Notes: a model not told the origin generated them from the sequence alone. Numbered from the stretch's first letter, positions 1,557-26,324 are shown. The stretch is 32,000 nt of DNA from an uncultured Gaiellaceae bacterium (GCA_963746975.1 CAVVDE010000012.1:66798-98797), one strand, 5' to 3'. Made by a program: numbers and translations.

Positions 1557-1612
1557 GTCCTCCCGATGTAGGCTCGAGGCATCCCTGCGAGGGTGAGCCC
1601 GAGGAGGCCTGT

Positions 1613-6527: not shown

Positions 6528-6772
6528 TGCAGGACGTCATGTCGCGCATCGAGGAGCTCGCCCGGGTCGAGGGCGCATCTCGTGTGACGCGCGTCGACGT
6601 CCGGCTCGGCGCCCTCTCCCACTTCACCCCGGACCACTTCGGGGAGCACTTCGAGGACGCGTCCCGTGGAACGGTCGCGGAGGGGGCCCTCGTCGTCGCG
6701 ACGATGGGCGCGGACATCACCGACGTGAGCGCCTCGGACGTCGTCGTGGAGAGCGTGGAGGTCGAGGTCTGA
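6509..6772 (+). CDS. hypA: HypA-like nickel metallochaperone lacking the zinc-binding domain (87 aa, no cysteine)
   Basis: Starts with the MHE nickel-binding N-terminus ([60 protein letters not shown]...). The translation contains no Cys, so the usual CxxC...CxxC site is absent. It overlaps the protease gene by 19 nt and hypC by 1 nt (TGATG). Confidence 0.6.
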   Translation: MHERALMQDVMSRIEELARVEGASRVTRVDVRLGALSHFTPDHFGEHFEDASRGTVAEGALVVATMGADITDVSASDVVVESVEVEV

Positions 6773-6984
6773 TGTGCCTCGGCGGAATCGCGCGGCTCGA
6801 CGAGACCTGGGAGGAGGACGGAGCGCGCCTCGGCCGCCTCGACGACGGATCGGTGGTGACGCTCTCGTTCCTCCCGGACGCAACGCCCGGCGCCTACGTC
6901 CTCGTCCACCTCGGCATCCCCGTGGAGGTACTCGAAACCGCCACGGCCGAAGACGCACTCGCACTGAGAGGAGAGTCCCCGTGA
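6772..6984 (+). CDS. hypC: hydrogenase assembly chaperone HypC/HupF
   Basis: ATG 6772 gives MCLGGIARLDETWEEDGARLGRLDDGSVVTLSFLPDATPGAYVLVHLGIPVEVL. This has the essential N-terminal Met-Cys, the OB-fold pattern and the typical ~70 aa size. Confidence 0.85.
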   Translation: MCLGGIARLDETWEEDGARLGRLDDGSVVTLSFLPDATPGAYVLVHLGIPVEVLETATAEDALALRGESP

Positions 6985-8650: not shown

Positions 8651-8659
8651 ACGCTCCGA

Positions 8660-9157
8660 CTAGGCCTGCAGGTGCGCCTCGACGAACCAGAGGTGCTTGT
8701 CGATCGCACGGGAGACCTCGGTGAAGAGGTCCGCAGTGTCCTGGTCGCCGAGCTCGCTCGTCGTGTCGATCGCTTCCCGTGCGCCCGCGCCGAACGCGGC
8801 CAGGCGATCGGCGACGACCTCGACGGTCTCCTTGCCCGCCACGGCGTCCAGCGGGTACTCGTCGAGCGTCGTCGCGGCAGCCGCCATGCGTGCCGTTCCC
8901 AGCGCCATGCCGCCGAGAGCGGTCGCCCGCTCGGCGATCATGTCGACGAACTCGAGCACAGATTCCGCGACGGCGTCGTAGAGCTCGTGGAGCTGGATGA
9001 AGTCGGTGCCCTTCACGTTCCAGTGCGCCTGCTTGAGCTGCGAGTAGAGGTCGAAGCTGTCGGCGAGGCGCGCGTTCAAGAGCTCGACCGACTTCTCCCG
9101 CGTCGCCTCGGGGATGTCATTGCGTGTCGCGAACGTGTGCGCTACCTGCGTGGCCAC
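8660..9157 (-). CDS. dps: Dps (DNA starvation/stationary-phase protection protein, ferritin-like)
   Basis: Full-length 165 aa: ...LNARLADSFDLYSQLKQAHWNVKGTDFIQLHELYD...DQDTADLFTEVSRAIDKHLWFVEAHL, the classic Dps ferroxidase-site pattern. Confidence 0.95.
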   Translation of the reverse strand: MATQVAHTFATRNDIPEATREKSVELLNARLADSFDLYSQLKQAHWNVKGTDFIQLHELYDAVAESVLEFVDMIAERATALGGMALGTARMAAAATTLDEYPLDAVAGKETVEVVADRLAAFGAGAREAIDTTSELGDQDTADLFTEVSRAIDKHLWFVEAHLQA

Positions 9158-9223
9158 GTCGTCTCCCTTCGTTCGACTACCGAGAGGCTACCCCCATCCT
9201 CCCGGCCCGAACCGTGTGAAGCG

Positions 9224-9691
9224 TCAGCGACGCCGGAGTGTCGCGAGGCGCTCGAGGCTTGCGTCCGGCCACAGCTTGTCGGTGTCGTAGTACGTGTTGA
9301 AGGCGGGCACCGATTCCGGAAGGGTCACCCAGGGGAGCTTCGAGCGCGCGTAGATGTGGACGTCGGGCTCGACCGCGGACGGGTCGTCGAGCGTGCCGGC
9401 GCGAACGAACCGAACCTTCGCGCTCGTGTACTGGCTGAACACCGCGACCTGGCAGCTCGGACAGCGCCAGATCTTCTGCTTCTTGCTGCCGCTTCGCCGC
9501 ACGGAGACGGCAACCGGCTCCCCTGCGAGGAGCTCGACCCGGTCGGTCTCGATGAGGATGTTCACGACGAACGCGCTCCCGGTCTGCCGCTGGCAGTTGA
9601 GGCAGTGGCAGCAGTGGACGAACAGCGGCTCGGATGCGAGCCGGTACCGAATATCGCCACACGAGCAGCCGCCCTCGAGTCGAGCGCTCAC
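9224..9691 (-). CDS. GFA-family (CENP-V/glutathione-dependent formaldehyde-activating-like) zinc protein
   Basis: Starts MSARLEGGCSCGDIRY, followed by ...VHCCHCLNCQRQTGSAF...WRCPSCQVAVF. GTG start sits 4 nt after GAGGAGGGA. Confidence 0.9.
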   Translation of the reverse strand: MSARLEGGCSCGDIRYRLASEPLFVHCCHCLNCQRQTGSAFVVNILIETDRVELLAGEPVAVSVRRSGSKKQKIWRCPSCQVAVFSQYTSAKVRFVRAGTLDDPSAVEPDVHIYARSKLPWVTLPESVPAFNTYYDTDKLWPDASLERLATLRRR

Positions 9692-9797
9692 GATCCCTCC
9701 TCTTCGCGGCCGAGACGATCGAGGAAGGCCACGATACGCGCCTGCGCGGTCTGGCGTGGCGACTCCAAAGGGGCACGGTCGCTTTTGCCGCTCCTTC

Positions 9798-10016
9798 TTA
9801 TCGGGGTGTCCAGAAGCCGGTGACCGTCCCTTCGATCGTCGCCACGCCCTCCGGTCCAGCGAAGAGCGTCTGGAGCGGAATGTCGCAGGTCACGGTGTCC
9901 GTGATCGGTGCCGCCTTCGACGAGGTATCCGTCTTGGGCTCCGGCGCGCCGCCGGTCGGCGTGAACGTGAACGTCAGCACGAACGCCGTCGGCACGGATA
10001 CGGACGAGCTCGCCAC
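9798..10016 (-). CDS. hypothetical small Thr/Ser-rich protein (72 aa)
   Basis: It fits exactly into the gap between modC and the GFA gene on the same strand, and G/C predominates at third codon positions. There is no convincing RBS, and the overlapping plus-strand frame shares third positions, so codon bias is not discriminating. I saw no family signature. Confidence 0.3.
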   Translation of the reverse strand: MASSSVSVPTAFVLTFTFTPTGGAPEPKTDTSSKAAPITDTVTCDIPLQTLFAGPEGVATIEGTVTGFWTPR

Positions 10017-10061
10017 GTCGTGGACCCGTGTGAACTCACCGTTGCCGCGACTGACTCACGA

Positions 10062-11096
10062 TCAGCGCGGGAAGAGCCGGGCCGCCGTCGCCTTGAACGA
10101 CGCCGTCGCGAGGACGCCGGGACGGAGGTCGAGGCGATCTGCAGACGCCGCCGTGATCTCGGCGACGATCGGCCCGACCCGCACGCGCGTGCGGTTCCCC
10201 ATCGGCGCGACCGAGATCACCGCTCCACTCACGTGGTTCATGCGCGAGTCGTCAGGCGTATGCGAGCCGAGAGAGACCTCCCACGGGTAGACCGCGACGT
10301 TGACGGCGCCGCTCGCCTCGTCGGCACTCCACACCGACAGCCCGCCGTCGAGTGCGACGTGGCTCAGGCCGTCGCGCGTCTCGACGACCTGCCCCGGAAG
10401 GACGGTCGCCCCGGTGAAGCTCGCCACGAACGCGTCCCGTGGCGTCGCGACGAGATCGGTCGGCGTCGCGAGCTGGAGCACCACGCCCTCGCTGATGACG
10501 CCCACACGGTGCGCGAGCGTCGCGGCGTCCTCGAAGTCGTGTGTGACGAGGATCGCGGGCAGGTCGAGCTCGTCCAGCAGCTCGCGGAGCTCCGCACGAA
10601 CCTCCGCGCGAGTGTGCGTGTCGAGAGCCGACAGCGGCTCGTCGAGCAGCAGGAGCGCAGGGTCGCGCGCGAGCGCGCGGGCGAGCGCCACGCGCTGGCG
10701 CTCACCGCCCGAGAGCTCGCCGATACGCGCTCTCGCGAGATCGCCGATACGGAATCGCTCGAGCAGCGGCTCGACGTCCTCGTTCCGCCGTGCGCCGAAG
10801 CGGACGTTGTGCCACACGTCGAGGTGCGGGAAGAGCGCGTACTCCTGGAAGAGGTAGCCGACCTGGCGCTGCTCGGGAGGGACGTCGACGCGTGTGGAGG
10901 TGTCGAGCAGCACGTCGTCGTCGAGCGCGACGTAGCCCTCGTCCGGCCGGAGGAGTCCTGCGACGACGCGCAGCACGGTCGTCTTGCCCGCGCCCGACGG
11001 ACCGACCAGCGCGACGGTCTCGCCGCGCTCGACCGTCAGGTCGGCCGACGCGCGGTAGCTGCGAAGAGCGTGAGAGAACCGGACCCGGAGCGCCAT
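10062..11096 (-). CDS. modC: molybdate-type ABC transporter ATP-binding protein with C-terminal TOBE domain
   Basis: Walker A GPSGAGKT, signature LSGGERQRVALARAL and Walker B LLLLDEPLSALD are present. The C-terminal TOBE-like region reads GAVISVAPMGNRTRVRVGPIVAEITAASADRLDLRPG. It lies downstream of modA and modB. Confidence 0.9.
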   Translation of the reverse strand: MALRVRFSHALRSYRASADLTVERGETVALVGPSGAGKTTVLRVVAGLLRPDEGYVALDDDVLLDTSTRVDVPPEQRQVGYLFQEYALFPHLDVWHNVRFGARRNEDVEPLLERFRIGDLARARIGELSGGERQRVALARALARDPALLLLDEPLSALDTHTRAEVRAELRELLDELDLPAILVTHDFEDAATLAHRVGVISEGVVLQLATPTDLVATPRDAFVASFTGATVLPGQVVETRDGLSHVALDGGLSVWSADEASGAVNVAVYPWEVSLGSHTPDDSRMNHVSGAVISVAPMGNRTRVRVGPIVAEITAASADRLDLRPGVLATASFKATAARLFPR

Positions 11097-11944
11097 CGAG
11101 TCACGAGCTTGACGGACAGCAGCACGAGCGCGCTAGTGACGATCAGGAGCGCGCTGATCGCCAGGGCGACGTCGAAGTCGATGTCGAACTGCTCGTAGAT
11201 GGCCAGCGAAAGCGTCTGCGTGACTCCCTGGAGCGAGCCGGCGAACATGATCGTCGCGCCGAACTCCCCGAGACCGCGAGCGAACGCAAGAGCCGCGCCC
11301 GCGCCCAGGCCGCCGCGAGCGAGCGGGAGCATCACGCGCGCGAAGACGCGAGCCGGACGCGCACCCAGCGTCCTCGCAGCAGCGGGCAACGTCGGATCCA
11401 CGACCTCGAACGACGCGATCGCGGTGCGGACGTAGAACGGGCTCGCGACGAAGGTCACCGCGAGGACGACCGCGACCTTCGTGAACGCGATGTCGATGCC
11501 GAGGGTTTCGAACGTTCCTCCGAGCAGCCCGACCCTGCCGAACGCGACGAGCAGGCCGATTCCGGCGACCGCCGGCGGCAAGACCAGCGGCAGCTCGACC
11601 AGCGTGACGAGCGCGTCCCGAATCGCGCCCTGCCGTGTCGAGATCCAGTAGGCGGCCGGCGTGCCGAAGACCAGGATCGCGAGCATCGAGATCGTGATCG
11701 TCTCGGCGGTGACTCTCAGCGCATCCTTGGCGGCGCCCGTGCCGAGCGCCGAGACGAGGTCGCCGGGGGGCACCTGAAGGAAGATCGCGACGACCGGGAG
11801 CAGCAGGAAGAGGAGAGCGACGCCCGTGGCCAGAACGAGCGTCGCTCGGAAGAGCCCGTCGCCGATCAGGCGCCGGGCGGGGGAAGGAATCCGTACTCCT
11901 TCAAGGCTCGTTGGCCGCGCGCGGAGAGCAGCATCCTGATCCAC
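11036..11944 (-). CDS. modB: molybdate ABC transporter permease
   Basis: The C-terminal 280 aa of ORF 11036..12622 are hydrophobic, with the permease EAA-type loop PTLPAAARTLGARPARVFARVMLPLA. The start is uncertain: GTG 11944 is the first in-frame canonical start near the modA stop. The 3' end overlaps modC by 61 nt. Confidence 0.8.
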   Translation of the reverse strand: MDQDAALRARPTSLEGVRIPSPARRLIGDGLFRATLVLATGVALLFLLLPVVAIFLQVPPGDLVSALGTGAAKDALRVTAETITISMLAILVFGTPAAYWISTRQGAIRDALVTLVELPLVLPPAVAGIGLLVAFGRVGLLGGTFETLGIDIAFTKVAVVLAVTFVASPFYVRTAIASFEVVDPTLPAAARTLGARPARVFARVMLPLARGGLGAGAALAFARGLGEFGATIMFAGSLQGVTQTLSLAIYEQFDIDFDVALAISALLIVTSALVLLSVKLVTRWRSGSGSLTLFAATARRPT

Positions 11945-12603
11945 GCCTGGGCCGCAGCCTTCTTCGATGAGCTCGAGACGACGGCGATCTCGTACCGAAC
12001 GCGCGGCTGTGCCCAAGCAGGGATGCGGATCACCTTCACCCGGTCTGCGACGGCGCGCGCGTCCGTCACGTAGACGAAGCCGGCATCCGCCTGCCCGAGC
12101 GCGACCTTGCTCGTGACGGCGCGCACGTCGGTCTCCTGGCTCACCACCTTTGAGAGCACGGAGGAGAGCCCCAGCTTCCGCAGCACCGTGCGCGTGTACG
12201 CACCGACCGGAACCCCTGTGCCGGCGACCACGAGCTTCGCGGGCTTCCGCCGCAGGTCGTACACGGAGTGGATCCCCGCCGGATTCGACTTCGGAACGAT
12301 GAGCGCGAGCCGATTCGACGTGAACGTCACCGGCTTCTGGACGAGCCCCTGCTTGAAGAGGCGCTGCGTGTTGAGCGGCGCCGCCGACGCGAAGAGATCC
12401 GCCGGCGCGCCGTTCCGGATCTGCGTCTCGAGCGCGTTGGAGCCGGCGAAGCTGTATGTCTGCCCCGGGTCGAGCGCGCGGAACAGGTCGGTCAGCGACG
12501 CCGCTGCATAGATCGTCAGCCGCACCTGCTTCGTTTGCGCCGGGACCGCGGCGACGAGCGCCGCGAGGGCAACGAGCACGACGACCGAGATCCGGTAGAT
12601 CAT
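11866..12603 (-). CDS. modA: molybdate ABC transporter periplasmic substrate-binding protein
   Basis: Signal-like N-terminus MIYRISVVVLVALAALVAAVPA, then LTIYAAASLTDLF...FAGSNALETQIRNGAPADLFASA...GFVYVTDA, the ModA family pattern. Confidence 0.9.
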   Translation of the reverse strand: MIYRISVVVLVALAALVAAVPAQTKQVRLTIYAAASLTDLFRALDPGQTYSFAGSNALETQIRNGAPADLFASAAPLNTQRLFKQGLVQKPVTFTSNRLALIVPKSNPAGIHSVYDLRRKPAKLVVAGTGVPVGAYTRTVLRKLGLSSVLSKVVSQETDVRAVTSKVALGQADAGFVYVTDARAVADRVKVIRIPAWAQPRVRYEIAVVSSSSKKAAAQAWIRMLLSARGQRALKEYGFLPPPGA

Positions 12604-12604
12604 C

Positions 12605-12646
12605 GGTAGCGGACGCTACCACGTCTGTAGTTATTGATTGACTACC
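12605..12646. promoter_or_regulatory. nested palindromes in the very short modA / padR-tsaA divergent region (candidate operator and promoter core)
   Basis: GGTAGCG-ga-CGCTACC is a perfect 7-2-7 inverted repeat at 12605-12620. GTAGT-tattgattg-ACTAC lies at 12627-12645. Both share GTAG...CTACC half-sites. The second surrounds the only AT-rich stretch, which includes TTGACT. Confidence 0.35.
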
Positions 12647-13687
12647 GACGTGAGCCGCGCTCCCCGTACCGACCCCTCGCTGCCCGAGTGGGCCGCTCTA
12701 GGGCTGCTCTGCGAGGAGTCACGCCACGGGTGGGCGGTGGCGCACGAACTCGCACCCGACGGCGAGATCGGCCGCGTGTACTCGTGCACGCGGCCTCTCG
12801 TCTACCGGGCCCTCGGCCAGCTGCGCGATTCGGGCCTCGTCGAGGTGCGCGGTCGAGCTGTGAGCGACACGGGCCCGGCGCGTACGACGCTCGGCCCGAC
12901 TCGGGCCGGCCGCGCGGCCTTTCGCCGTTGGTGCTCGGCGCCGGTCGAGCACGTCCGGGACCTGCGGTCGGAGCTCATGCTGAAGCTGCTCTTCGCCGAG
13001 CGCGCGGGCCGCGATCCCGCGACGCTCCTCCGCGCGCAGGCGGCGCAGCTGTCGAGCGCCGAGCTCGCACTCGAGCGACAGGCGCGGGCGACGGCCGACT
13101 TCGACCGAACGCTCGTGCTCTGGCGCCTCTCGGTCGTCCGGGCGTCGCTCTCGTTCGTCGAGGCGCTCCTCGATCAGCGGACGGTCGAGCCCGTCGTGTA
13201 CAGGCCGATCGGCCTCGTCGCATCCGCACACGACGATCTCGACGGCATGCCGCTGCAACCGATCGCGGACAGGACCGGCGAGTCCCGGATCGAGATGTTC
13301 GAGGCACATCGGGGCTGCCTCGAGGACCTCGAAGGGTTCTCGCACGTCTGGGTGCTCGCGCATCTGCACGAGACGACGGGGTGGGATCCGGCCGTACCGA
13401 CGTTCCTCGACGACACGACGCACGGCACGTTCGCGACCCGCTCTCCTCGGAGACCGAACCCGGTGGGCCTTTCGCTCGCGCGCATCGTCACCGTCGAGGA
13501 GCTCGCGGTCGTCGTCGAAGGCATCGATCTCCTGACCGGAACGCCGGTTCTCGACCTCAAACCGTACGTCCCACTGTTCGACGTCCCTGGCGAAGACGTC
13601 CGCTCGGGCTGGTTCGAGGGGCGCGCAGAGCGAGTGTTCAAGCGCCGCTCGGACGACCGCTTCGCGCCCCGAAGCCGTCGCGCATAG
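12638..13687 (+). CDS. fusion protein: PadR-family winged-helix regulator (N-terminal ~175 aa) plus TsaA/TrmO-like (UPF0066) domain (C-terminal ~165 aa)
   Basis: The N-terminal part LPEWAALGLLCEESRHGWAVAHELAPDGEIGRVYSCTRPLVYRALGQLRDSGLVEV plus a helical C-terminal extension matches a full-length PadR. The C-terminal part YRPIGLVAS...LEGFSHVWVLAHLHE...HGTFATRSPRRPNPVGLSLARIV...LLTGTPVLDLKPYVPLFD matches the YaeB/TrmO signature (GxFATRSxxRPNPIGxS, DGTPxxDxKPY). Start is TTG 12638 or GTG 12650. Confidence 0.8.
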   Translation: MTTDVSRAPRTDPSLPEWAALGLLCEESRHGWAVAHELAPDGEIGRVYSCTRPLVYRALGQLRDSGLVEVRGRAVSDTGPARTTLGPTRAGRAAFRRWCSAPVEHVRDLRSELMLKLLFAERAGRDPATLLRAQAAQLSSAELALERQARATADFDRTLVLWRLSVVRASLSFVEALLDQRTVEPVVYRPIGLVASAHDDLDGMPLQPIADRTGESRIEMFEAHRGCLEDLEGFSHVWVLAHLHETTGWDPAVPTFLDDTTHGTFATRSPRRPNPVGLSLARIVTVEELAVVVEGIDLLTGTPVLDLKPYVPLFDVPGEDVRSGWFEGRAERVFKRRSDDRFAPRSRRA

Positions 13688-13786
13688 CGCGATACGTACT
13701 AATCCCCCTGCCGAAATCACGACTTCTCCCGTCGCACCGCGAGCGCAGAAGGCGCACTCTCGAGGTGACGACGACCGGGGGCGCGG

Positions 13787-15431
13787 ATGAGCGAGCACGG
13801 GACGAAGCGAGTCCTCATCGCAGGCGGTGGAGTTGCAGCACTCGAGGCTGCCCTCGCCCTCAGAGAGCTGGCGGCCGACCTCATCGCCGTCGAGCTCCTG
13901 GCGCCGCACGCGACGTTCGAGTATCAGCCGATGTCCGTCGCCGAGCCGTTCGGCCTCGGCGACGTCATGCACCTCGACCTCGATGATCTCGTCGAGGAGA
14001 TCGGAGCGCACCGGATTCCAGCCGGTCTCACCGGCATCGACGCGTGGCGGCACACCGCGCACACGACGACGAACGTCGAGGTGCCGTACGACACGTTGCT
14101 CGTCGCATGCGGCGTGCTGCCGCTGCCTGCGGTTCCGGGTGCGACGACGTTTCGCGGCTCGGTCGACGCGCCGAAGATCGGGCACCTCCTGGAGGAGCTC
14201 GACGCGGGCGACGTGCGCTCGGTCGCATTCGTCATCCCCTGGGGCGCGGTCTGGTCGCTGCCGGCCTACGAGCTCGCGCTGCTGACGGCCGTCCACCTCG
14301 GCGACAGGGGGATCCGTGATGCGCACGTCACGCTCGTGACACCCGAGACGGAGCCGCTCCAGGTCTTCGGGTCGCCGGCGAGCGACGCGATGAGGAGCCT
14401 GCTCGACGCTCGGGGCATCGAGCTGCGTGCCGGCGCCTATGCCGGAGGTTTCGCGGACGGCTCGCTCGAGCTGGTTCCGGGCGGCTCGCTCGCGGTCGAA
14501 CGGGTCGTCGCCCTGCCGAGGCTCGAGGGAGCGCCTCTCGACGGGATTCCGCAGACGCTTGCAGGGTTCATCCCGGTGGACGCCCACTGCCGCGTCCACG
14601 GGCTCGCGAACGTCTACGCAGCGGGCGACATCACGAGCTTCCCGATCAAGCAGGGCGGTCTCGCAGCGCAACAGGCGAACGTCGCGGCCGAGGCGATCGC
14701 GGCCGCGCTCGACGTCTCGATCGAGCCGAGGCCGTTCCAACCGGTTCTCCGAGGGCTGCTGCTGACCGGACGCGAGCCGCGCTACCTTCGCCGCGAGCTG
14801 AGCGGACACGCCGAGCACGAGCCGGTCACGACGTACGAGGCCCTCTGGTGGCCGCCCGCGAAGGTCGTCGGCCGGCACCTCGCACCGTTCCTCGCGCGCG
14901 TCGCCGGAGCCGAGGCACCTGCCGAGATCCCGGCACCCGAGTCGGGATCCGTACCCGTGGAGATCGAGCTCGAACCGAGCACCACCGCACTGTCGGCCGT
15001 CCCACGGCTCTCCCTGGTCGAGCTCGGGCCCGAGGAGGTCGAGATCGCCGACGTCATGGCCGAAGCGGTCGTCGTGGCGCCGGAGGACACGCTCGGCGAG
15101 GTGGCCGAGTACCTCGTCGGCACGGGATCAGACCGCTGCCGCCGTGGCCGAGTACGGCCGCCTCATCGGCATCGTCACGACCTCGGACGTCATTCGCGCG
15201 TCCGCGGCGCGCATCCTGCCGGCTGAGGCGCGTGCCCGGCACTGGATGACCGCGGAGCCCGTCACCGTCTCACCGACCTATCCCGTCTCGGCGGCCGTGA
15301 TGCTCATGGCCGAGTACCGGATCCACCACCTGGTCGTCGTCGACGGCGCACGCGTGGTCGGGATGATCGACGTCGAGGATCTGCGGCAGGGTGCACCGAC
15401 GGCCGGCTCGGAGTTCGAGCGCGTGTACTGA
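13787..15431 (+). pseudogene. SQR-like NAD(P)/FAD-dependent oxidoreductase fused to a CBS-domain pair, interrupted by one frameshift near 15125-15143 (pseudogene or assembly indel)
   Basis: N-terminal Rossmann motif KRVLIAGGGVAALEAALAL, and later VYAAGDITSFPIKQGG. The first CBS motif is split: IADVMAEAVVVAPEDTLGEVAEYLVGTG is in the 13787 frame, and AAVAEYGRLIGIVTTSDVIRA continues in the 15144 frame. The second CBS (WMTAEPVTVSPTYPVSAAVMLMAEYRIHHLVVVDGARVVGMIDVEDL) is intact in the second frame. Confidence 0.75.
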
Positions 15432-15440
15432 GTCGGCGCG

Positions 15441-15743
15441 CTACGAGTCGTCGTCCGGCACGAACGACACCTCGTCGACGTAGCACCAGAACCAGGGCTC
15501 GTACGGCTCGACCGAGCGAATGATCGGATGGCCGGTGTCGCTCGCGTGAGCGCTCGCGTGCCGGTTCGGAGAGTTGTCGCAGCAGAGGATCCGGCCACAG
15601 CTCGTGCAGCGCCGAAGGTGCACCCACCAGCCGTCGATCTCGAGACAGTCCTCGCAGCCGGGGATGTTCTCCGGCACGTCGGCGAACTCGATCGTGTCCA
15701 GGTGGCTGCAGGCCGGAGGCATGACGTCGGACGGTACCTGCAC
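15441..15743 (-). CDS. UBP-type zinc-finger (zf-UBP) domain protein
   Basis: CSHL...CEDCLEIDGWWVHLRRCTSCGRILCCDNSPNRHASAHASDTGHPIIRS..EPWFWCYVD matches the zf-UBP Cys/His pattern. The start is GTG 15743 or, perhaps more likely, ATG 15722 (MPPACSHL). Confidence 0.85.
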   Translation of the reverse strand: MQVPSDVMPPACSHLDTIEFADVPENIPGCEDCLEIDGWWVHLRRCTSCGRILCCDNSPNRHASAHASDTGHPIIRSVEPYEPWFWCYVDEVSFVPDDDS

Positions 15744-15747
15744 CCAT

Positions 15748-15917
15748 TAGATGGTCGATGCCACGAGATCGCCAGCTCGGGGGCGTGAGCTGGCCGCTCC
15801 GGGGCGCGAAGCGCACGCCCGACGCCAGGCCGCTTCGCGGCCTGCGTCCGGGCGGTAGCGGACCGGACGCGCCAGATCGCGCATCCGGACGCGCGAGATC
15901 GTGGCCTCGACCATCTA
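15748..15917. repeat. imperfect ~21-23 bp inverted repeat bracketing a hairpin-rich divergent intergenic region
   Basis: The left arm tagatggtcgatgccacgagatc (15748-15770) matches the reverse complement of the right arm gatcgtggcctcgaccatcta (15897-15917), which is tagatggtcgaggccacgatc. The match is an 11-nt perfect core plus 7 more nt, with one mismatch and a 2-nt indel. Internal perfect hairpins are GCCAGCTC-N8-GAGCTGGC (15771-15794) and GGCCGC-ttc-GCGGCC (15828-15842). Confidence 0.4.
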
Positions 15918-15920
15918 GGC

Positions 15921-16610
15921 TTGCCGCCCGTGCAGTCCGCGTTCGACGTCCGGCCGCTCGACGGCTCCGCGCTCGCGCTCGAGACGCGCGTCCTCGCAGC
16001 GGCGGAGTCGGCAGTCGTCGGCGACGAATCGAGAGACACACTGCTGTTCGTCGCCCACGGCGCCGGGTCGCTTGCCCTCGACGGCGCGAGTCACGCGCTC
16101 GCGACATCGACGGCGGCCCTCGTGCTCGCAGGAGAGACCGCGACCGTCTCGGCCGAGGACGAGCTCGAGCTCGTCGTCGCGACGGTCGGCGGCGACGTGG
16201 ACCTGCACGCGCCGATGGGACCACGCGACGTCGTCACCTCACTCGAAGACGCCGACGAACAGAAGGCGACGGGCGATCGCTCGTTCGAGATCCTCTTCGG
16301 GCCGCACAACGGCTGCACGCGAGCGACCCTCTTCGCCGGCTTCATCCCTCCTGGCACGGCGCCGTGGCATTACCACCTGTACGACGAGATCGTGTGGGTT
16401 CCCGAGGGGCCGGGTCGGTTGCACCTACAGCAGGGCGACGAACCGCTCGGGCCGGGGTCGGCGTTCCGGCTGCGCCCGCGCCAGGTGCACATCGTCGAGA
16501 ACGCGAGCTCGAGCGAGATGACGATCATCGGCGTGTTCACGCCGGCCGGAAGCCCGTCGGCCGCCTACCTCACGGCCGACGTCGCAGCCGAGTACCGCAT
16601 CGCGGGATAG
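15921..16610 (+). CDS. cupin-domain protein (two-barrel layout; C-terminal barrel carries the metal-site-like motif)
   Basis: GTAPWHYHLYDEIVWVPEGPGRLHL...GPGSAFRLRPRQVHIVEN resembles the cupin motifs G(x)5HxH...E and G(x)5P..G...H..N. The start is TTG 15921 or GTG 15930. Confidence 0.7.
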   Translation: MPPVQSAFDVRPLDGSALALETRVLAAAESAVVGDESRDTLLFVAHGAGSLALDGASHALATSTAALVLAGETATVSAEDELELVVATVGGDVDLHAPMGPRDVVTSLEDADEQKATGDRSFEILFGPHNGCTRATLFAGFIPPGTAPWHYHLYDEIVWVPEGPGRLHLQQGDEPLGPGSAFRLRPRQVHIVENASSSEMTIIGVFTPAGSPSAAYLTADVAAEYRIAG

Positions 16611-17996: not shown

Positions 17997-18789
17997 TCAG
18001 CCGAACCAGTCGCGCAGCGGGAGGCTCTGGCCGAGCGCCGAGAAGTCGCCGTCTTCCCGGATCGCCTTGGCGGCGTCCGCGAACGCCGCGACCGCAACCC
18101 AGGTCAGGCCGCCTCCCACGCTGATCCGCTGCGCGCCGGCATCGGCGATCTCGGAGAGCGTCAGGCCACCGAGCGCGAGAACGTTGACAGGACGCGTGAC
18201 CGCGTCGCACACCTCTCGTATCTCCGACGTCGTCCTGAGCCCGGGCGCGTAGAGCACGTCCGCGCCCGCCGCCTCGTACGCCTGCAGGCGTGCGATCGTG
18301 TCCGTGAGATCGGGATTGCCGCGGATGTGGTTCTCGGCTCGTGCGGTCAGCGTGAACGGGAAGCCCAGGCCACGAGCGGCCTCGACGGCCGCCGCGACTC
18401 GCTCGGTTGCCTCGCCGACCTCGTACAGGCGACCCGAGGGGTCGTAGTCCTCGATCGAGCCGCCGACCGCGCCCGCTTCGGCGACGCGGGCGATCGCAGC
18501 TCGCTGTCGCTGCCGGCGAGCTCCCGTATCCGTTCTCCAGGTCAACCGAGACAGGGAGGTCGGTCGCTCGATCCAGCGCGGCAGTGTGCTCGGCGACCTC
18601 GTCGAGCGTCGCTCCGCTGTCGAGCCGGCCGAGCGTGAACGCGAAGCCCGAGCTCGTCGTCGCCAGCGCCTCGAAACCGAGGGCCTCGAGCACTCGGGCC
18701 GACCCGACGTCCCACGGGTTCGGGATCACGAATGGCGCGCCCTCGTGGAGGGCGCGGAAGGCCTCCGCTTTCTGCTCCTGTCTCGTCAC
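17997..18789 (-). pseudogene. isocitrate lyase/PEP mutase family protein (2-methylisocitrate lyase / carboxyvinyl-carboxyphosphonate phosphorylmutase-like) with one frameshift near 18495-18510
   Basis: The N-terminal part, from ORF 17890..18789, is MTRQEQKAEAFRALHEGAPFVIPNPWDVGSARVLEALGFEALATTSSGFAFTLG...PVSVDLENGYGSSPAAT. The continuation, in ORF 17997..18545, is AIARVAEAGAVGGSIEDYD...TLTARAENHIRG...ARLQAYEAAGADVLYAPGL. The two pieces are contiguous in the family fold but lie in different frames. Confidence 0.8.
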
Positions 18790-19748
18790 CGGATCTCGAG
18801 CACGACCTTGCCACGCTTTCCGCGCTCGTGCACGCGAGCGAACGCCGCCGGGGCGTCGGCGAGCGGGAACACCGCGTCGATCGCGGGCCGAATCCGGCCC
18901 GCCTCGATCAGCCGCGCGAGCTCTTCGAGCTGGTCGCGCGACTGCTCGACGACGAAGTAGAGCGCGGCGATGTCGTCTCGTCCGTGCTCCGGCGGTTCCT
19001 CCGCCACGGACACGATTCGCCCTCCCGGCCGCACTACCTCGACGGCGGACGCCAGCGCATCGCCTCCGACGGTGTCGAAGACGAGATCGACGGGCTCGAT
19101 GGACTCCTCGAGGCGCTCAGCTCTGTCGACGACCTCCTCGGCGCCGAGCTCACGCACCAGCTCGAGATCGGCGGCAGACGCCGTCCCGGTCACGTGTGCG
19201 CCGCGCTCGTGCGCGAGCTGGGTCGCGAAGTGACCAACACCGCCGGCGGCACCGAGAACGAGGACGCGCCGGCCCGCCTCCAGCCGACCGTGGTCGAACA
19301 GGCCCTGCCACGCGGAGAGCGCGCCCATCGGCACTGCGGCAGCCTCGACGTGACTCAGGCTCCCCGGCTTGGCGGCGAGGACGCTCGACGGAACCGCGGC
19401 GTACTCGCGGGCGACGCCGTCGCGGTCGAACGGCGTGAGTGCGTAGACCTCGTCGCCGACTCGCAGGTCGGTGACGTCGGATGCGATCTCGCTGACGACG
19501 CCAGAGACCTCGTACGACGGGACCGCGGGGAGCCGATCGACCGGCCACTCGAGCTCGTCCCGCGTGATCGCAGCGGCGTGAACCTCGACGAGGACCTCGC
19601 CCGGCCCGGGGTTCGGAATCGCGAGCTCCTCGAGCGCAACACGCGGCGTGGGCTCGCCGCCGTGCAGGCGTACCGCCCGCATGACGCCGCTCCCGCCCGT
19701 CGGCGATCCGACGTCTCCCGCGCTCTCGAACTCCCTGACATCGCGCAT
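18786..19748 (-). CDS. NADP-dependent oxidoreductase, medium-chain dehydrogenase/reductase (quinone oxidoreductase-like) family
   Basis: MRAVRLHGG...GPGEVLVEVHAAAITRDELEW...VLVLGAAGGVGHFATQLA...RGKVVLEI. ATG 19748 has a strong GAGGAGGGG upstream; ATG 19682 (MRAVRL) is an alternative start. The stop overlaps the GTG start of the PEP-mutase gene as GTGA. Confidence 0.9.
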   Translation of the reverse strand: MRDVREFESAGDVGSPTGGSGVMRAVRLHGGEPTPRVALEELAIPNPGPGEVLVEVHAAAITRDELEWPVDRLPAVPSYEVSGVVSEIASDVTDLRVGDEVYALTPFDRDGVAREYAAVPSSVLAAKPGSLSHVEAAAVPMGALSAWQGLFDHGRLEAGRRVLVLGAAGGVGHFATQLAHERGAHVTGTASAADLELVRELGAEEVVDRAERLEESIEPVDLVFDTVGGDALASAVEVVRPGGRIVSVAEEPPEHGRDDIAALYFVVEQSRDQLEELARLIEAGRIRPAIDAVFPLADAPAAFARVHERGKRGKVVLEIR

Positions 19749-20346: not shown

Positions 20347-21509
20347 CGCGCCGCCCGCAGCTCCGCGCGGAACTCCCGCAACCGAGCCGTCTCGAGCGCG
20401 ATCGAGAAGGCAAGGATCACGATGACCACGCCGAGCGTCACGATCGCATCGGCGCCGTCGAGCAGCACCGCGACCACGAGGACGAGCGCGGCCGCGGCCA
20501 GGCGCTCCCAGGCGACCCGGCGCACGACCCGAAAGCGCATGAGCGCGAAGCCGCACAGGAAGAACGCGATTCCGAGACCGAGCGCCCAGCGGCCCGGCTT
20601 CGACAGCGGGTCGAGCGGATGCTCGAGCGTCTTCTTCGCCGCGACCGCGTACAAGATGATGCCGAGCACGAGCGGATAGTGAAAGTACGTGAAGACGTCC
20701 CGTGCGAGAACCCCCCGGGCAGGTCCGGACGCTCGTTTCAGCGAACGCTCCGCGGCGACAGCGGTGAAGTCGAAGTACGCCCACCACAGGGCAGCCACTC
20801 CGGCGAACGCGATCACGACCGAGACCGCGTACGTTGCATCGCGATCGAGGCCGGCAGTTCCGACGCCGATCGCGACGATCGACTCGCCGAGAGCGATGAT
20901 CACGATCAGTGCGAAGCGCTCGGCGAAGTGGGACGGTGACACGTGCCAGTCCGCTCGCGCGACGGTCAGCGTCCCGACGACGTCGATGACGAGCGAGGCG
21001 AGCCACACCCAGGCGCGGTAGTCCGCGTCGACGAAGCCGCCGGCGAGTGCGACCGCCGCAGCGATGAGGAACCAGGGCGCCAGGCGCAGCGTCGCCCGCA
21101 GCGTTTCGGGCTCGTTTCGGACGCCCCATGAGTACAGCGTCGAATTCAGCACGCGGACGACGAAGTAGGCGACCGCGAACCAGGCGGCTTCGTCTTGGAA
21201 GGCGTGCGGAACTGCGAGGGCCATGAAGAAGCCCGCGACCATGGCGGCGAAGATGATGAGGCGGGTCACCGCGTTCTCGACGTCGATCGCATTCGTCATC
21301 CACGCGTACGCCGACCACGCCCACCACACCATCGCGAGGACGAGCGCGGCGCGGGCAAACCCCTGCAGGCTCGGGTCCTCGAGGATGAGCGCGGTCACCT
21401 GCGTGAACGCGAAGACGAAGACGAGGTCGAAGAAGAGCTCGAGGTAGCTGGTCTTCCGCTCTTCCTCCTCGACGTTCGGCTCGACGACGAGGCGCTCGAT
21501 GTCGGTCAT
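20343..21509 (-). CDS. ltrA: low-temperature-requirement protein A (LtrA) family membrane protein
   Basis: ATG 21509 gives MTDIERLVVEPNVEEEERKTSYLELFFDLVFVFAFTQV..., the LtrA N-terminal signature, followed by multiple transmembrane segments. The start overlaps the upstream peptidase stop as ATGA. The longer 771-aa ORF is an Arg-rich artefact. Confidence 0.85.
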   Translation of the reverse strand: MTDIERLVVEPNVEEEERKTSYLELFFDLVFVFAFTQVTALILEDPSLQGFARAALVLAMVWWAWSAYAWMTNAIDVENAVTRLIIFAAMVAGFFMALAVPHAFQDEAAWFAVAYFVVRVLNSTLYSWGVRNEPETLRATLRLAPWFLIAAAVALAGGFVDADYRAWVWLASLVIDVVGTLTVARADWHVSPSHFAERFALIVIIALGESIVAIGVGTAGLDRDATYAVSVVIAFAGVAALWWAYFDFTAVAAERSLKRASGPARGVLARDVFTYFHYPLVLGIILYAVAAKKTLEHPLDPLSKPGRWALGLGIAFFLCGFALMRFRVVRRVAWERLAAAALVLVVAVLLDGADAIVTLGVVIVILAFSIALETARLREFRAELRAAR

Positions 21510-23083
21510 GTGAGCGTGACGGCCCGGGCAAGAGATTCGACCGAGAGCGACGATCCCGACGCCTGCTCGACGAGACGATCCCAGCGCGCCGACTCGCCGG
21601 CGGCGAAGAGCCGCTCGCGGAGGAGCGCGCCCGCCTCCGGGCGGTCGACGATCCCGCCCACCTCGGCCTCGAGCGCCGCCGCCAGCTGGAGCGCGACGAT
21701 CGCCCCGTAGAGATAGGTGTGGTAGTAGACGGGCGAGACGGCGATGTGGATCTTCGCCGCCCAGTCCGGCGCTCGGCGGCCGTCGGGTGGAGTCACTCCC
21801 TGGTACCGCCGCACGAGCTCCCACCAGAGCGCGTCGAGGTCTCCGTCGGGGTCGGCATACAGCGCGCGCTCGAACGTGTTCATGACGAGGACCCAACGCG
21901 TGAAGACGAGAAGCTCGGCGGCTCGCGCCGCGAGCAGGCGGCCCTCCAACTCGGCGCCTTCGCCCGCGCTCAGCCCGAGAATGCGCTCGAGCCACTCGCG
22001 CCGCCATGCAAGCGCGCCGCAGAGCAGCGCCGACGCCTCCGTGGCGACGAGGTGCGTCGAACGCAGCGTCCACGGAAGGTCGTCGCTCAAGCCGAGGTCG
22101 TAGACGCCGTGACCAAGCTCGTGGAGCATCGTGTCCGCCGAGTCGTGCGTCTCGGCGACGTTCGCCAGGATGCGCACGTCGTCTCGCCGGTCGATGTCGA
22201 TGCAGAACGCGTGCTGGTTCTTGCCGGCCCGCGGGTAGAGGTCGCTCCGGGCGATGATCCCCTCGGCATCGAGCCCGATCCCCTCGATCGTGCGGCGGGC
22301 GAGCGCCACGATGTCCTTCCCCTCCAGATACGGGTCGAGATCGACGGCCGAGTCGGGCGGCGCCTCCTGGAAGAACGGGTCGGCGTAGTTCCACGGCCGG
22401 AGCTCCCCCACCGAGCAGCCGAAGCGTGTGGCAAGCCGCTCGTCGAGCGCGCTCTTCCACCTCGCGAACGGCTCGGCGGTGACTCGATCGCATTCGCCGA
22501 GCGTCACCGCCAGCCTGGTCTCGTCGAGTTCGTCGGTCGACAGGCTGAGTGCGAACCAGTCGCGATGGCCGAGCGAGCGCGCGGCCACGTTGCGTAGGCG
22601 AGCGAGCTCGCGGACGTCGTCGGCCACTTCGGCGCCGACCGTCTTCGACGCCTCCCACGCCTCCCGCCGCTCCCCGGGATCGTCGCTCCGCCGCAGGATC
22701 CGCTTGATCTCGGTGTCCCCCACCTCGTCGCCGCCGACCACCCCCCGGTGTCGCGAGAAACGCAGGTCGACGTATGTCTCGAGCTCGACGATCCGCGACC
22801 GGAGCCCGTCCGGCACCTGGCGCCGAACCATGGCGTTGTGCAGGAGGTCGAGCCGGCGTCGATCCTGCCCGCCCGCGCCGTTACGGCGAGCAGCCTCGAC
22901 CGATGCGAAGAGCGCGCGATCGGCGAGCGCGTCCGACCACGCCAGTTCCGCATGCGTGCGCCTCTCGGCATTCTCCTCCGTCGCCTCGACCTGCGAGTTC
23001 CACCAGCCGAGGTTGGACTCGACCGCGAGCGGCGCGAGCCGGGCCTCGACCTCGTCGGCGATCCTGGACGGATCCGCCGTCAC
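21506..23083 (-). CDS. HExxH zinc metallopeptidase (M3/M2-like oligopeptidase or carboxy-dipeptidase type)
   Basis: GTG 23083 overlaps the upstream TGA as GTGA. Contains ...WWNSQVEATEENAERR...DTMLHELGHGVYD...TEASALL...SPVYYHTYLYG. This gives HELGH plus a downstream E, and the layout looks gluzincin-like. The exact MEROPS family is not resolvable by eye. Confidence 0.8.
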   Translation of the reverse strand: MTADPSRIADEVEARLAPLAVESNLGWWNSQVEATEENAERRTHAELAWSDALADRALFASVEAARRNGAGGQDRRRLDLLHNAMVRRQVPDGLRSRIVELETYVDLRFSRHRGVVGGDEVGDTEIKRILRRSDDPGERREAWEASKTVGAEVADDVRELARLRNVAARSLGHRDWFALSLSTDELDETRLAVTLGECDRVTAEPFARWKSALDERLATRFGCSVGELRPWNYADPFFQEAPPDSAVDLDPYLEGKDIVALARRTIEGIGLDAEGIIARSDLYPRAGKNQHAFCIDIDRRDDVRILANVAETHDSADTMLHELGHGVYDLGLSDDLPWTLRSTHLVATEASALLCGALAWRREWLERILGLSAGEGAELEGRLLAARAAELLVFTRWVLVMNTFERALYADPDGDLDALWWELVRRYQGVTPPDGRRAPDWAAKIHIAVSPVYYHTYLYGAIVALQLAAALEAEVGGIVDRPEAGALLRERLFAAGESARWDRLVEQASGSSLSVESLARAVTLT

Positions 23084-23592
23084 GCCGCCGTCGACTGGAC
23101 GAGGCTCACGACCCGGATACCCGTCCGGAAGCGATCGAACGACTGCTTCCAGGTGTACCCGGGCCAGCGGTACTCCACCGCTCCGCGCACGACGTCGTAC
23201 ACCGCGGTGTAGAGCGTTCCCATTCCCCACCGGTACGCACCGGAGAAGAGCGGCGGGTAGTCGTAGTTGCGGACGAGCATCGGGCTCGCCGCGCGTCCAG
23301 ACGCCCTGCGAGCAGCCCGGAGAGGTACGAGGGAGGCCGCCACATCGAGAGCATCCGGGCCTCGAGGTCGCCGCCGCCCGCGAGCTCGCACAGCCGCTCG
23401 CCACGTGGGGACGAGCTCCGGCATGTGCTCGCGGAGCATGCGCGCGGACTCGGCGTAGACTCGCACGCGCTCGTTCGCCCTCGTGCAGGAACCACGGGCG
23501 GTAGCGCGGCCAGTGGTTATCGAAGAGCGCCTGCCACTTGCTCGCCCGGCAGCAGCCTCTTCGACGGCCTCGAAGGTCAGCTCGAGGCTCAC
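23080..23592 (-). pseudogene. remnant of a C45-family (acyl-CoA:6-APA acyltransferase-like, autoproteolytic) gene, split over three frames and apparently truncated
   Basis: Pieces in order: VSLELTFEAVEEAAAG, then KWQALFDNHWPRYRPWFLHEG, then ANERVRVYAESARMLREHMPELVPTW, then ERLCELAGGGDLEARMLSMWRPPSYLSG, then CSQGVWTRGEP, then MLVRNYDYPPLF... They alternate among the three minus-strand frames. The family assignment comes from my recollection of the G|CS nucleophile context and the xRNYDY motif. Only about 170 codons are present, whereas I recall this family being about twice that length. Confidence 0.5.
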
Positions 23593-25065
23593 AGCATCTT
23601 GAAGGAGAAGGGCTCGGGCGGCGGGAGCGGCGTCGCGAGCGGAGGTGGGACGCCCTGGAACTGCGCCTTGATCCCCGAGATCCAGAGCGAGCGCCGCTCG
23701 GTGAGCTCGTGGTCGTCGGTCTGCAGACGGCCGCGTGGTCACGAGGATCCCGAGATCGGCTCCGGGGTAGCGGAACTGTCCCTCCGCCGGCGATGCGGAG
23801 GTAGAAGGCCTCGTCCTCGCTCGGCGACGGTGTGCCAGTCGGTCTCGCGGCGGACGAAGCGGATTCCTCCGGGCGCCTTCGGATCGAGACGCCAGACACC
23901 GGAGCGCGGCGCATGCGGTGATCAGCTCGACGTCGTCGTCGGTCTGCTTGAGGATGAACTGGCTCCACTCGTCGACGGCACCCGGGTGCGCCCACGCCTC
24001 GTTCAGCGCGGCGACGTCGATCTCGTACTCGACGTCGGCGAACTCGATGAGATGGAAGAGGAAGAGCGGCATGTCGCCGTACGCAACGGCGGTGACGTTC
24101 GTCATGGAGCTCGCCCCGGTGACGCGCGGGTTGAGCTCCCGAGGTAGAGCTCGCCCGAGTCGACGTCGGCGAGGAAATCGAGCTCGAAGTAGCCGAGGTA
24201 GCCCTCCTGTCGCAGGCGGTCGCCCATCAGCCGGGTGTATTCACGAGCGAGCGAGCGTTGCCGCTCGGTGAGCGCCGTCGCGAAGACGTCGTTGCCGCAC
24301 CAGCCGCCGCCGTACGGCGTGAGCTCGGGGAAGCCGGTGAGCTCGGTCATGAGCGGACCGACGAGAGTTCCGTGCCGCGTGATGACACCCTCGATCGCGG
24401 CCTCGCAGCGGGTCGATGCGCTTCATGACCTTGAGGTCGTGATCGACGAGCTCGCAGCGTGCGCGTCCCAGTCCGCGGGCGGTCGCGACGAAGAACGTCG
24501 TCTGGCCGGAGTCGCCGTACGGGGTCTGCACGACGAGGTTCTGGCCGAGATCCGCAGCCGAGAGCGAGCTTGCAGCAGGTCGCCGTACGAGTCGGCGCGA
24601 CCGAGGACGTTGGGGACGCTCGGCACGCCGGCCTCGTCGGCGAGCCGCGTCGTCTCGATCTTCGAGTCGAGCCGCGTGCGGAGCGCCGCGGAGGGGAAGG
24701 CGAGCTCGAGCCCGGCCTCCTCGGCGAGCCGCTCGGTCTCCTCGTCGAACATGAGGAAGACCGCCTTGCCGTGACCGTCTCCGCGATGAAGTCGTGCACG
24801 TCCTTGTGGGCGAGGAGGTAGTTGCAGATCTCCTCGATCGACTCGAAAGCCGGCGGTCGTGGTACGTCGGCACGAAGACGTTGGGGTGGTACCCGTCGAA
24901 CGAGTCGTAGTAGTTGACGTAGCGGAAGGTCGGGATCCAGCGGTCGATCCCGAGGAGGTTGAAGGCCGTCGCCGAGACGAAGTAGACGGGTGTCGTCGCC
25001 GTGCGGAAGAAGCGGCGGATCTCCGAGATGCTCTGGAGCGGCCGGGCCGTCGCACGGTCGCTCAT
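23589..25065 (-). pseudogene. ATP-grasp ligase (PGM1-like, with pre-ATP-grasp N-terminal domain) broken by at least 9 frame switches
   Basis: ATG 25065 overlaps the M20 TGA as ATGA. Recognisable consecutive pieces are: MSDRATARPLQSISEIRRFFRTATTPVYFVSATAFNLLGIDRWIPTFRYVNYYDSFDGYHPNVFVPTYHD; PAFESIEEICNYLLAHKDVHDFIA; GDGHGKAVFLMFDEETERLAEEAGLELAFPSAALRTRLDSKIETTRLADEAGVPSVPNVLGRADSYGDLLQ; LSAADLGQNLVVQTPYGDSGQTTFFVATA...ELVDHDLKVMKRIDPLR; AAIEGVITRHGTLVGPLMTELTGFPELTPYGGGWCGNDVF...GYLGYFELDFLADVDSGELYLG; ELNPRVTGASSMTNVTAVAYGDMPLFLFHLIEF...DEWSQFILKQTDDDVELITA; APRSGVWRLDPKAPGGIRFVRRETDWHTVAE; EDEAFYLRIAG; GQFRYPGADLGILVT; RGRLQTDDHELTERRSLWISGIKAQFQGVPPPL...FSFKML then TGA. The length of 1477 nt is not a multiple of 3. 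Confidence 0.8.
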
Positions 25066-26324
25066 CGAAGGCCGCACCAGTCGCGGACGAGGAGCGCGAG
25101 CACCTGAGCAGTCTGCACCACCGACGGGAGATGGACGCGCTCGTCGACCCCGTGGATGCGCTCGGCGTACGGCCCGATGCAGGCGGTCGGAATCCCCTGA
25201 CCGACGAACGCGCGCGCATCCGTCGTCGCGGTGGTCGGTCCCGTGACGGCGTCCTCCTCCGTCACCGCCTTCCAGGCGGCTGCCAGCGCACGAACGATCG
25301 GCTCGTCGTCCGCGACCGTCGTTCCTTCGTTGGCGAAGCCGGAGTAGCGAACGGTCGGCACGTGCGCGGTGAGGTAGGCGCTGTCCGACGCGGCACGCGC
25401 GACGGCATCCTCGACGCGCCGCTTCAGCTCCTCGATCGATGCCCCCGGATACGTCGCGATGCGGCACGAGAGCGAGCATTCGGCCGCAACTGTGGACGGC
25501 CAGTCTCCTCCCGAGACGACTCCGACGTTGAGGTTGATCGGGTGCGGCACCGAGTCGAACGGCGGCGGTGGCTCGGCGTTGAGCTCGTCTTCGAGGAAGT
25601 GCAGCTCGCGGACGATCGCGGTGCCGGCCTCGATCGCGCTCACACCGTCCTGCGCCTCCGCGACGTGCGCCGGCGCACCGGCGATGTCGACGTGGAACCA
25701 CAGAACCCCGACCTGCGACGTCGGGATGAACGCGGGGTACGGCTCCGGGATCACGACTGCATCGGCTTGGAGGCCGGAGAGCGCGCACTGGAGGGCGCCG
25801 TTCCCCCCGCACTCCTCCTCGACCACCGACTGCAGCTGGACCGGAGCGAGAGGTGCGAGACCGAGCCGCTGGAGTGCAGCGACCGCGCCGACGATCGCCG
25901 CCAGGCCCGCCTTCATGTCGCCGGAGCCGCGCCCGTAGAGCCACTCGCCCTCGCGGACGGCCGCAAACGGTGGCGTGCGCCAGAGGCGCTCGGACGCAGG
26001 CGGGACGACGTCGATGTGACCGTTCAGGACAAGCGAGCATCCGCCGTCGCCCGTGGCAGGCCAGTCGGCGACGACGTTTCGCTTGCCGGTGACGTCCCAG
26101 TCGAACGGCGCCGCGCGCGGATCGGAGCGCAGGAGGTCGGCGTCCAGCGGGATGTCGACTGGCTCGAGGCCGAGGAGATCCCGGAATGCCTCCTCGATGA
26201 TCGCCTGCCCTCGCTCCTCGTTCCCGAGCGTCGTCGGCGCCTCGACCAGCCGCACGAGGAGATCGACCAGCTCGTCCTCGACGCCCGCGACCGCGTCGAC
26301 GATCTCGCGGTCGGAGACGCTCAT
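25062..26324 (-). CDS. M20-family metallopeptidase (ArgE/DapE/acetylornithine deacetylase-like)
   Basis: Intact 420 aa: LVLNGHIDVVPP...WLYGRGSGDMKAGLAA...VVEEECGGNGA...GPTTATTDARAF, giving the HxD, GRGxxDMK and EE metal/catalytic motifs. Confidence 0.9.
   Translation of the reverse strand: MSVSDREIVDAVAGVEDELVDLLVRLVEAPTTLGNEERGQAIIEEAFRDLLGLEPVDIPLDADLLRSDPRAAPFDWDVTGKRNVVADWPATGDGGCSLVLNGHIDVVPPASERLWRTPPFAAVREGEWLYGRGSGDMKAGLAAIVGAVAALQRLGLAPLAPVQLQSVVEEECGGNGALQCALSGLQADAVVIPEPYPAFIPTSQVGVLWFHVDIAGAPAHVAEAQDGVSAIEAGTAIVRELHFLEDELNAEPPPPFDSVPHPINLNVGVVSGGDWPSTVAAECSLSCRIATYPGASIEELKRRVEDAVARAASDSAYLTAHVPTVRYSGFANEGTTVADDEPIVRALAAAWKAVTEEDAVTGPTTATTDARAFVGQGIPTACIGPYAERIHGVDERVHLPSVVQTAQVLALLVRDWCGLR

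Follow-up and report, generated by a model that had tools for sequence, protein, structure and literature searches.

Clustered single-base indels in an ATP-grasp/C45 gene pair of a Gaiellaceae metagenome assembly most probably represent local long-read consensus errors

The window analyzed here comprises 32,000 nucleotides (nt; G+C content ~70%) of a metagenome-assembled genome (MAG) from an uncultured Gaiellaceae bacterium (GCA_963746975.1 CAVVDE010000012.1:66798-98797), in which two adjacent genes, encoding an ATP-grasp protein and a member of the C45/AAT family, are interrupted by numerous frame switches. Both genes belong to a tightly packed row on the minus strand, consisting of an M20 deacylase gene, the ATP-grasp gene, the C45/AAT gene, an M3/M2-like metallopeptidase gene and an LtrA-family gene. 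ATGA or GTGA stop/start overlaps are present at 25065-25062 (M20/ATP-grasp start, ATGA), 23592-23589 and 23083-23080, and the M20 and metallopeptidase genes on either side of the interrupted pair are clean, as had been described in an earlier reading of the window made from the sequence alone (hereafter the sequence-only reading). The same gene order was found in three fetched orthologous loci, which encode the M20 protein, a 490-amino-acid (aa) ATP-grasp protein, a 328-aa AAT/C45 protein, an M3-like protein of ~524 aa and LtrA. The public record of the source contig (952,850 nt; NCBI, ENA) lists frameshifted open reading frames (ORFs) as ordinary proteins.

Translation of the minus strand in three frames showed that the ATP-grasp and C45 peptides stay family-like while hopping between frames, and, as the sequence-only reading had held, the order of the pieces follows that of real ATP-grasp and C45 proteins. 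A rough stitch of the ATP-grasp pieces gave a collinear match to NF005096 (PRK06524; profile positions 10-434, 642 bits) and retrieved 490-aa homologues with 86-88% identity. Indels were called by MAFFT and BLAST against the intact orthologous locus L003 (JGI, 84% nucleotide identity; related loci are numbered L001-L044), and the calls were supported by L005, L001, L002, L038 and L041. Compared with the intact orthologues, the window carries 18 single-base indels between 24857 and 23284, namely 14 insertions and 4 deletions; 12 of the 18 events affect the ATP-grasp gene and 6 the C45 gene (Table 1). The "at least 14" frame switches counted previously are therefore real but slightly under-counted. 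Each junction listed at that time lies within ~20 nt of a mapped event; those at 24560 and 23545 each consist of two insertions 14-16 nt apart. A compensating pair suspected around 24448-24481 was recovered as one insertion and one deletion. The extra and the missing base together convert ATPADWDAHAAELV into ATARGLGRARCELV, and with both bases fixed the reading becomes FFVATPADWDAHAAELV, in line with the DW[DE]xHA pattern seen in 28 homologues.

Loss of single bases from G/C runs, which had been proposed as the simplest origin of several junctions, fits the deletions only: 4 of 4 are compatible with contraction of such a run, whereas about 7 of the 14 insertions lie outside any run. One specific repair, cgcccggc at 24853, was not upheld. 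It yields DRPAF where the orthologues read EPPAF, and the most economical placement of the missing base is the third position of a GAG/GAC codon at 24857. Frame breaks were located with a codon-phase hidden Markov model in the window and with tblastn chains in the relatives; a blastx count against stop-to-stop ORFs was too noisy. Over the whole window, the model placed non-boundary frame breaks elsewhere only near 15126 and 18494, in agreement with the two outlying frameshifts (15130 and 18500) noted earlier. Thus 18 of 21 events fall within 1.6 of 32 kb (chance P = 4e-21). Outside the patch, the 7.4-kb alignment with L003 contains only two gaps, both intergenic, and on the side of the M3-like gene there are zero indels across 23256-19832.

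Table 1. Positions of the genes, single-base events and deposited products in the window (positions count from its first nucleotide).
Feature	Position	Strand	Remarks
M20 deacylase (ArgE/DapE-family)	25062..26324	-	intact, flanks patch; NF005306, 430 bits
ATP-grasp gene (NF005096 / PRK06524 'biotin carboxylase'-like)	23589..25065	-	12 single-base indels; 1477 nt vs expected 1473
C45/AAT-family remnant	23080..23592	-	6 single-base insertions; 160 codons gone; orthologues 328 aa, PF03417 + NF040521
M3/M2-like metallopeptidase	21506..23083	-	intact, flanks patch; GTGA overlap kept
Anomalous patch	23257..24857	-	18 single-base indels, ~1 per 89 nt; 480-nt deletion bounds low-coordinate end
1-nt deletion (CAC GA- CCG)	24857	-	orthologue alignment
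1-nt deletion (ATC G-C GGA)	24784	-	orthologue alignment
1-nt insertion (CT[G]C AAG)	24573	-	outside runs; orthologue alignment
1-nt insertion (GG[C]T GCG)	24557	-	outside runs; orthologue alignment
1-nt insertion in/beside GCCC run	24477..24480	-	compensating pair, part 1; homologue comparison
1-nt deletion (GCT GC- GAG)	24453..24454	-	compensating pair, part 2; homologue comparison
1-nt insertion (CT[G]C GAG)	24406	-	outside runs; orthologue alignment
1-nt deletion (CTC GG- GAG)	24139	-	fits G-run contraction; orthologue alignment
1-nt insertion (AC[C]G CAT)	23918	-	orthologue alignment
1-nt insertion (GC[C]G AGC)	23824	-	orthologue alignment
1-nt insertion (GCC[G] GCG)	23788	-	orthologue alignment
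1-nt insertion (ACC[A] CGC)	23736	-	orthologue alignment
1-nt insertion (GC[T] GCT GCC)	23554	-	orthologue alignment
1-nt insertion (GAG[C] AAG)	23540	-	outside runs; orthologue alignment
1-nt insertion (AG[T]C TAC)	23459	-	outside runs; orthologue alignment
1-nt insertion (CG[A]G CGG)	23398	-	outside runs; orthologue alignment
1-nt insertion (CTC TCC GGG C)	23322	-	placement ambiguous; orthologue alignment
1-nt insertion (GAG CC[C] G ATG)	23284	-	orthologue alignment
480-nt in-frame deletion junction (NYDY/PPLF)	23256..23257	-	orthologue alignment
341-aa deposited product P0128	23083-24105	-	frameshifted ORF
82-aa deposited product P0140	24102-24350	-	frameshifted ORF

The repaired coding sequence is that of an ordinary member of its family. 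With the indels removed, the ATP-grasp gene comprises 490 codons without a stop and is 91% identical to its L003 orthologue; for the two genes together, no in-frame stop occurs in 655 repaired codons (487 + 168), just as none had been seen in the separate pieces. On NF005096, the repaired ATP-grasp protein reaches 729.6 bits over profile positions 10-479 of 493, where the cut-off is 684 and an intact orthologue obtains 738.7. This full-length match is seen only after repair; in the deposited sequence, the family is not spanned by any one ORF. The ratio of nonsynonymous to synonymous divergence (dN/dS) relative to L003 was 0.10 for the repaired ATP-grasp gene and 0.26 for the repaired C45 gene, as compared to 0.23, 0.17 and 0.10 for flanking genes, and synonymous divergence (dS) was 0.44-0.52 in the patch versus 0.50-0.57 in the flanks. 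At 211 near-invariant columns of an alignment of 120 homologues, the repaired ATP-grasp protein deviates twice, other members deviating at 0.62 columns on average and at up to 12.

Bacterial pseudogenes carry several times more substitutions than indels, and the latter vary in length, with a bias towards deletions; a natural pseudogene with 18 indels is expected to hold many more substitutions and some stops. Here we found neither relaxed selection nor excess substitutions, and neither a loss of conserved residues nor in-frame stops, and all 18 indels measure 1 nt, 78% of them being insertions, with the large deletion described below as the exception. The alignment with orthologues that had been proposed as a check thus returned 18 indels and a dS no higher than that of the flanks. 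The coding sequence beneath the indels is under normal purifying selection. Given the score of 729.6 bits, the dN/dS of 0.10, the flank-like dS and the 2 deviations in 211 columns, natural decay is therefore excluded, and the earlier remark that the patch does not look like long-term neutral decay was correct.

Next we compared the same gene cluster in related genomes. Related loci were probed with five intact L003 proteins, and 'contig_N' records, mostly MAGs of the Microflora Danica (MFD) project, were taken as long-read assemblies. Among the genomes searched, the nearest are MAGs of Gaiellaceae and Gaiellales (best match 80% identical), and many of these are 'MFD... contig_N' records. MFD Nanopore assemblies were produced with Flye and one round of Medaka (PMC12313526), and consensus indels in Nanopore assemblies fragment gene calls, and bins under ~40-fold coverage still require polishing (Sereika et al. 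2022, PMC9262707). Frame switches in the cluster were found in 13 of 25 long-read loci versus 0 of 18 short-read loci (Fisher P = 1.6e-4). Compared with short-read relatives, the net events in the other long-read loci were 123 of the +1 type and 42 of the -1 type (75% insertions), similar to the patch with 14 of 18 (78%), and their indel contexts, too, were mostly outside homopolymers. A short-query search further recovered at least 13 fragments of the 490-aa ATP-grasp protein, each 70-211 aa long, on ENA contigs between 50 kb and 1.7 Mb in size. An insertion-biased mode of single-base error thus fills the sister long-read assemblies and is absent from short-read ones.

Sharp-edged dense patches likewise occur in some of the long-read loci. 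L042 (MFD02242.bin.2.312, contig_10121) showed 0 events in 503-5887 (5.4 kb) followed by 57 net frameshifting events in 5888-16431 (10.5 kb) relative to the short-read locus L017, and L040 (MFD00962.bin.2.40) showed 44 events over its whole 15.5 kb. The event-dense stretches of both are insertion-biased.

The patch ends exactly at a 480-nt gap in the C45 gene. The gap corresponds to exactly 160 codons and removes residues 111-270 of 328, and with them the larger part of the PF03417 domain, which occupies residues 101-302 in the L003 protein. This bears out the earlier estimate that about half of the gene had been lost; the window copy has no intact AAT domain including the nucleophile region. 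We consider the odds roughly even that this deletion is a real variant or an artefact. Its exact, in-frame nature favors a real variant, as does a CGCC(GA) microhomology of 4-6 nt that the orthologues have one base inside each breakpoint. Against it, the deletion was found in none of ~35 relatives having the C45 gene, and a codon-level scan of JGI metagenomes did not find its junction. A metagenome scan with a strain-specific 23-mer was also without matches.

The gene pair as a whole is missing between the M20 and M3-like genes at L039 (7332-10221) and L040 (10007-12905), one a short-read and the other a long-read relative, in which the M3-like gene follows ~100-150 nt after M20. The ATP-grasp/C45 pair is therefore variably present in Gaiellaceae. 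Were the 480-nt deletion real, it would provide a small case of strain-level loss of the C45 enzyme within such a variably present pair.

Independent sequence is available for one edge of the patch. Exact-protein look-ups returned a single same-strain contig, the Logan contig L004 (run ERR11748452), which encodes an identical M20 protein and matches the window at 1508 of 1509 nt (99.93% identity, 1 mismatch); the M3 and LtrA products had no match in the gene index. The sole difference, C in the window versus T in L004 at position 26327, sits 3 nt upstream of the start codon of M20 and may reflect either a strain single-nucleotide polymorphism (SNP) or a consensus error. L004 breaks off at 24895, 38 nt short of the first indel, an end that could reflect a fall in consistent read support at the patch edge or mere chance. 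Two short-query protein searches found no same-strain fragments, returning just the window's own 82-aa ORF and more distant ones.

Because the repaired genes lack signs of decay and because the same error pattern recurs in sister long-read assemblies, we conclude with considerable confidence that the 18 indels are local long-read consensus errors and not mutations of the organism. Among the three options raised by the sequence-only reading, the evidence accordingly favors a local low-quality or mixed-strain consensus. That every event is exactly one base long, and that 14 are insertions, sets them apart from natural pseudogene indels. The length of the source contig (952,850 nt) and its relatives point to Nanopore as the platform, so that the contig would most likely have been built with Flye and one Medaka round. 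Over ~1.6 kb the consensus may have been thinly supported, by few reads, by a mixture of two co-assembled variants, or both, and local read depth was probably low. Since the consensus would be poorly supported there, read-level single-base errors, mainly spurious insertions, could survive polishing; a single-base indel rate of ~1% would be in the range of raw reads, and stepwise changes in read depth would yield sharp-edged patches of raw-read accuracy. That the patch ends exactly at the 480-nt deletion suggests that the assembler took its path from a minority molecule or variant with this deletion, or from a faulty read. The position of the deletion at the patch edge, together with the absence of the pair from L039 and L040, indicates that the locus may be heterogeneous in the sampled population, with the assembler on a thinly covered minority path. 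In real cells, the ATP-grasp gene would be expected to form one open frame of 490 codons.

Several observations weigh against a consensus error. Classic Nanopore consensus errors are homopolymer deletions, and most events here are insertions, about half of them outside runs, although the sister long-read loci behave likewise. Elsewhere, the window is clean apart from 3-4 events in 30 kb, and a special local cause must therefore be assumed. The 480-nt deletion is atypical for a consensus error and may be real. The sequencing platform was deduced for the source contig and not taken from its record. Finally, 5 of the 15 insertions in the window sit in a coding-strand GCTGC created by the insertion itself (24572-24576, 24554-24558, 24405-24409, 23549-23556 and 18496-18500). 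This context could represent a genome-specific systematic miscall or chance; a methylation-like GCWGC context was not enriched among the insertions of other long-read loci (4 of 78, background level).

A collapse of two strains, leaving the alternative third-codon bases of synonymous SNPs in tandem, was also considered. It is compatible with all insertions, and 11 of 14 are best placed at third codon positions, as compared to about two-thirds by chance; this difference is not significant, and we did not rely on it.

Alternatively, the indels may be real and the gene pair very recently inactivated: the 480-nt deletion would have killed the C45 core, after which the useless ATP-grasp/C45 pair would decay by frameshifts. 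The deletion, exact and with short microhomology at its ends in the orthologues, does resemble a real slippage deletion, the pair is dispensable in some relatives (L039 and L040), and the flanking genes have kept their overlapping start and stop codons. We nevertheless regard this scenario as improbable, as it requires 18 indels without a measurable excess of substitutions (flank-like dS, dN/dS of 0.10, 2 of 211 columns, no stops), a spectrum of 1-nt events with 78% insertions that is unlike that of pseudogenes, and a signature that in sister assemblies tracks long-read technology.

A locally indel-prone process appears less probable still. Error-prone repair synthesis after a double-strand break, for example, might have lost 480 nt and added untemplated insertions over the adjoining 1.6 kb. 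The patch is indeed one-sided and ends exactly at the deletion, its events are nearly all of one kind, and the lack of accumulated substitutions would fit a single recent event. We are, however, not aware of any repair tract in which single-base insertions reach ~1% while substitutions are lacking. Moreover, identical insertion-biased noise extends over at least 10 kb in other long-read MAG loci without an adjacent deletion, and a further insertion of this kind, at 18498, stands alone and far from any deletion. The full proposition, that one recent event in a soil Gaiellaceae lineage left ~1.6 kb of one-sided error-prone synthesis from a break, with ~1% untemplated insertions and no substitutions, we rate just as unlikely. 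Least credible of all, to the point of being negligible, is purposeful decoding by programmed ribosomal frameshifting, transcriptional slippage or editing into a full-length protein: the repaired reading is full-length and family-like, and wrong-frame stretches seldom meet stops (which a G+C content of 70% predicts anyway), but 18 sites of both signs without a shared slippery motif would be required, the frame-0 reading from the ATG stops at 24241, and every short-read orthologue is a single open frame at the same positions (L003 and L005-L009 being unshifted).

Some further features of the window were recorded. The row of M20, ATP-grasp NF005096, C45 acyltransferase-hydrolase and M3/M2-like genes (window 21506-26324) is conserved across Gaiellales and Solirubrobacterales MAGs among L001-L044, where the stop/start overlaps recur as well. 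The ATP-grasp protein has no Pfam match and, among solved structures, resembles biotin-carboxylase domains only weakly (pyruvate carboxylase 3tw6, E = 5e-4). On the plus strand, the GC skew ranges from +0.07 to +0.13 at 23501-25000 and is near zero elsewhere in the window; the ATP-grasp gene has a coding-strand skew of -0.105, as compared to -0.04 to -0.05 for its orthologues in L003 and L005. This difference is beyond what 18 indels could cause; the skew is partly a property of the gene and is not informative.

Both of the outlying frame breaks lie within genes. At 18494-18500, an isolated one-base insertion outside runs (AG[C T]GCG on the coding strand; compared with L001, L002 and L005) splits a PEP-mutase/isocitrate-lyase-like gene on the minus strand (~17997-19116) and is of the same kind as the events in the patch. 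At 15115-15145, in a plus-strand gene ending at 15431, there are apparently two one-base deletions separated by ~20 nt, one within a G run (ACGGGATC) and one within a C run (CCGCCGTG). Reading across three frames yields LVGTGIRPLPPVAEYGRLIGIV, and positions 1-55 of 57 of the CBS domain PF00571 are matched by the stitched peptide.

If the patch is a local consensus error, as we consider very probable, counts of pseudogenes, gene losses or 'novel' proteins in such long-read MAGs would mislead. Patches of this type can be flagged without access to reads by three properties: many single-base indels, mostly insertions; their concentration in a sharp-edged cluster; and, with the indels taken out, normal dN/dS and conserved residues.

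The patch can finally be compared with known systems. Like pseudogenes in neutral decay, e.g. in reduced genomes, it presents adjacent genes broken by many frameshifts together with a large internal deletion; unlike these, it shows no substitution excess, no stops, a dN/dS of 0.10 and 1-nt, insertion-biased indels. With genes that use programmed frameshifting or slippage (prfB, dnaX, IS3 transposases) it shares a protein readable only by changing frame. Those genes, however, rely on one conserved slippery site common to orthologues, whereas here 18 unrelated sites are involved, none of them shared. Consensus errors from collapsed strains resemble the patch in the local nature of the defect, in the structural variant alongside and in the variably present gene pair, and 14 of 14 insertions can be read as two alternative third-position bases in tandem; their placement, however, is indistinguishable from random, and a second haplotype was not recovered. 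Compared with the textbook case of Nanopore-only MAGs, in which deletions in long homopolymers are thinly spread, the events described here differ in being 78% insertions, about half outside runs, and packed into 1.6 kb beside a 480-nt deletion. They nevertheless share with the consensus errors of Nanopore-only MAGs (PMC9262707, PMC12313526) single-base indels that split genes, a family-like protein beneath them, an occurrence on long contigs and their absence from short-read assemblies of relatives.

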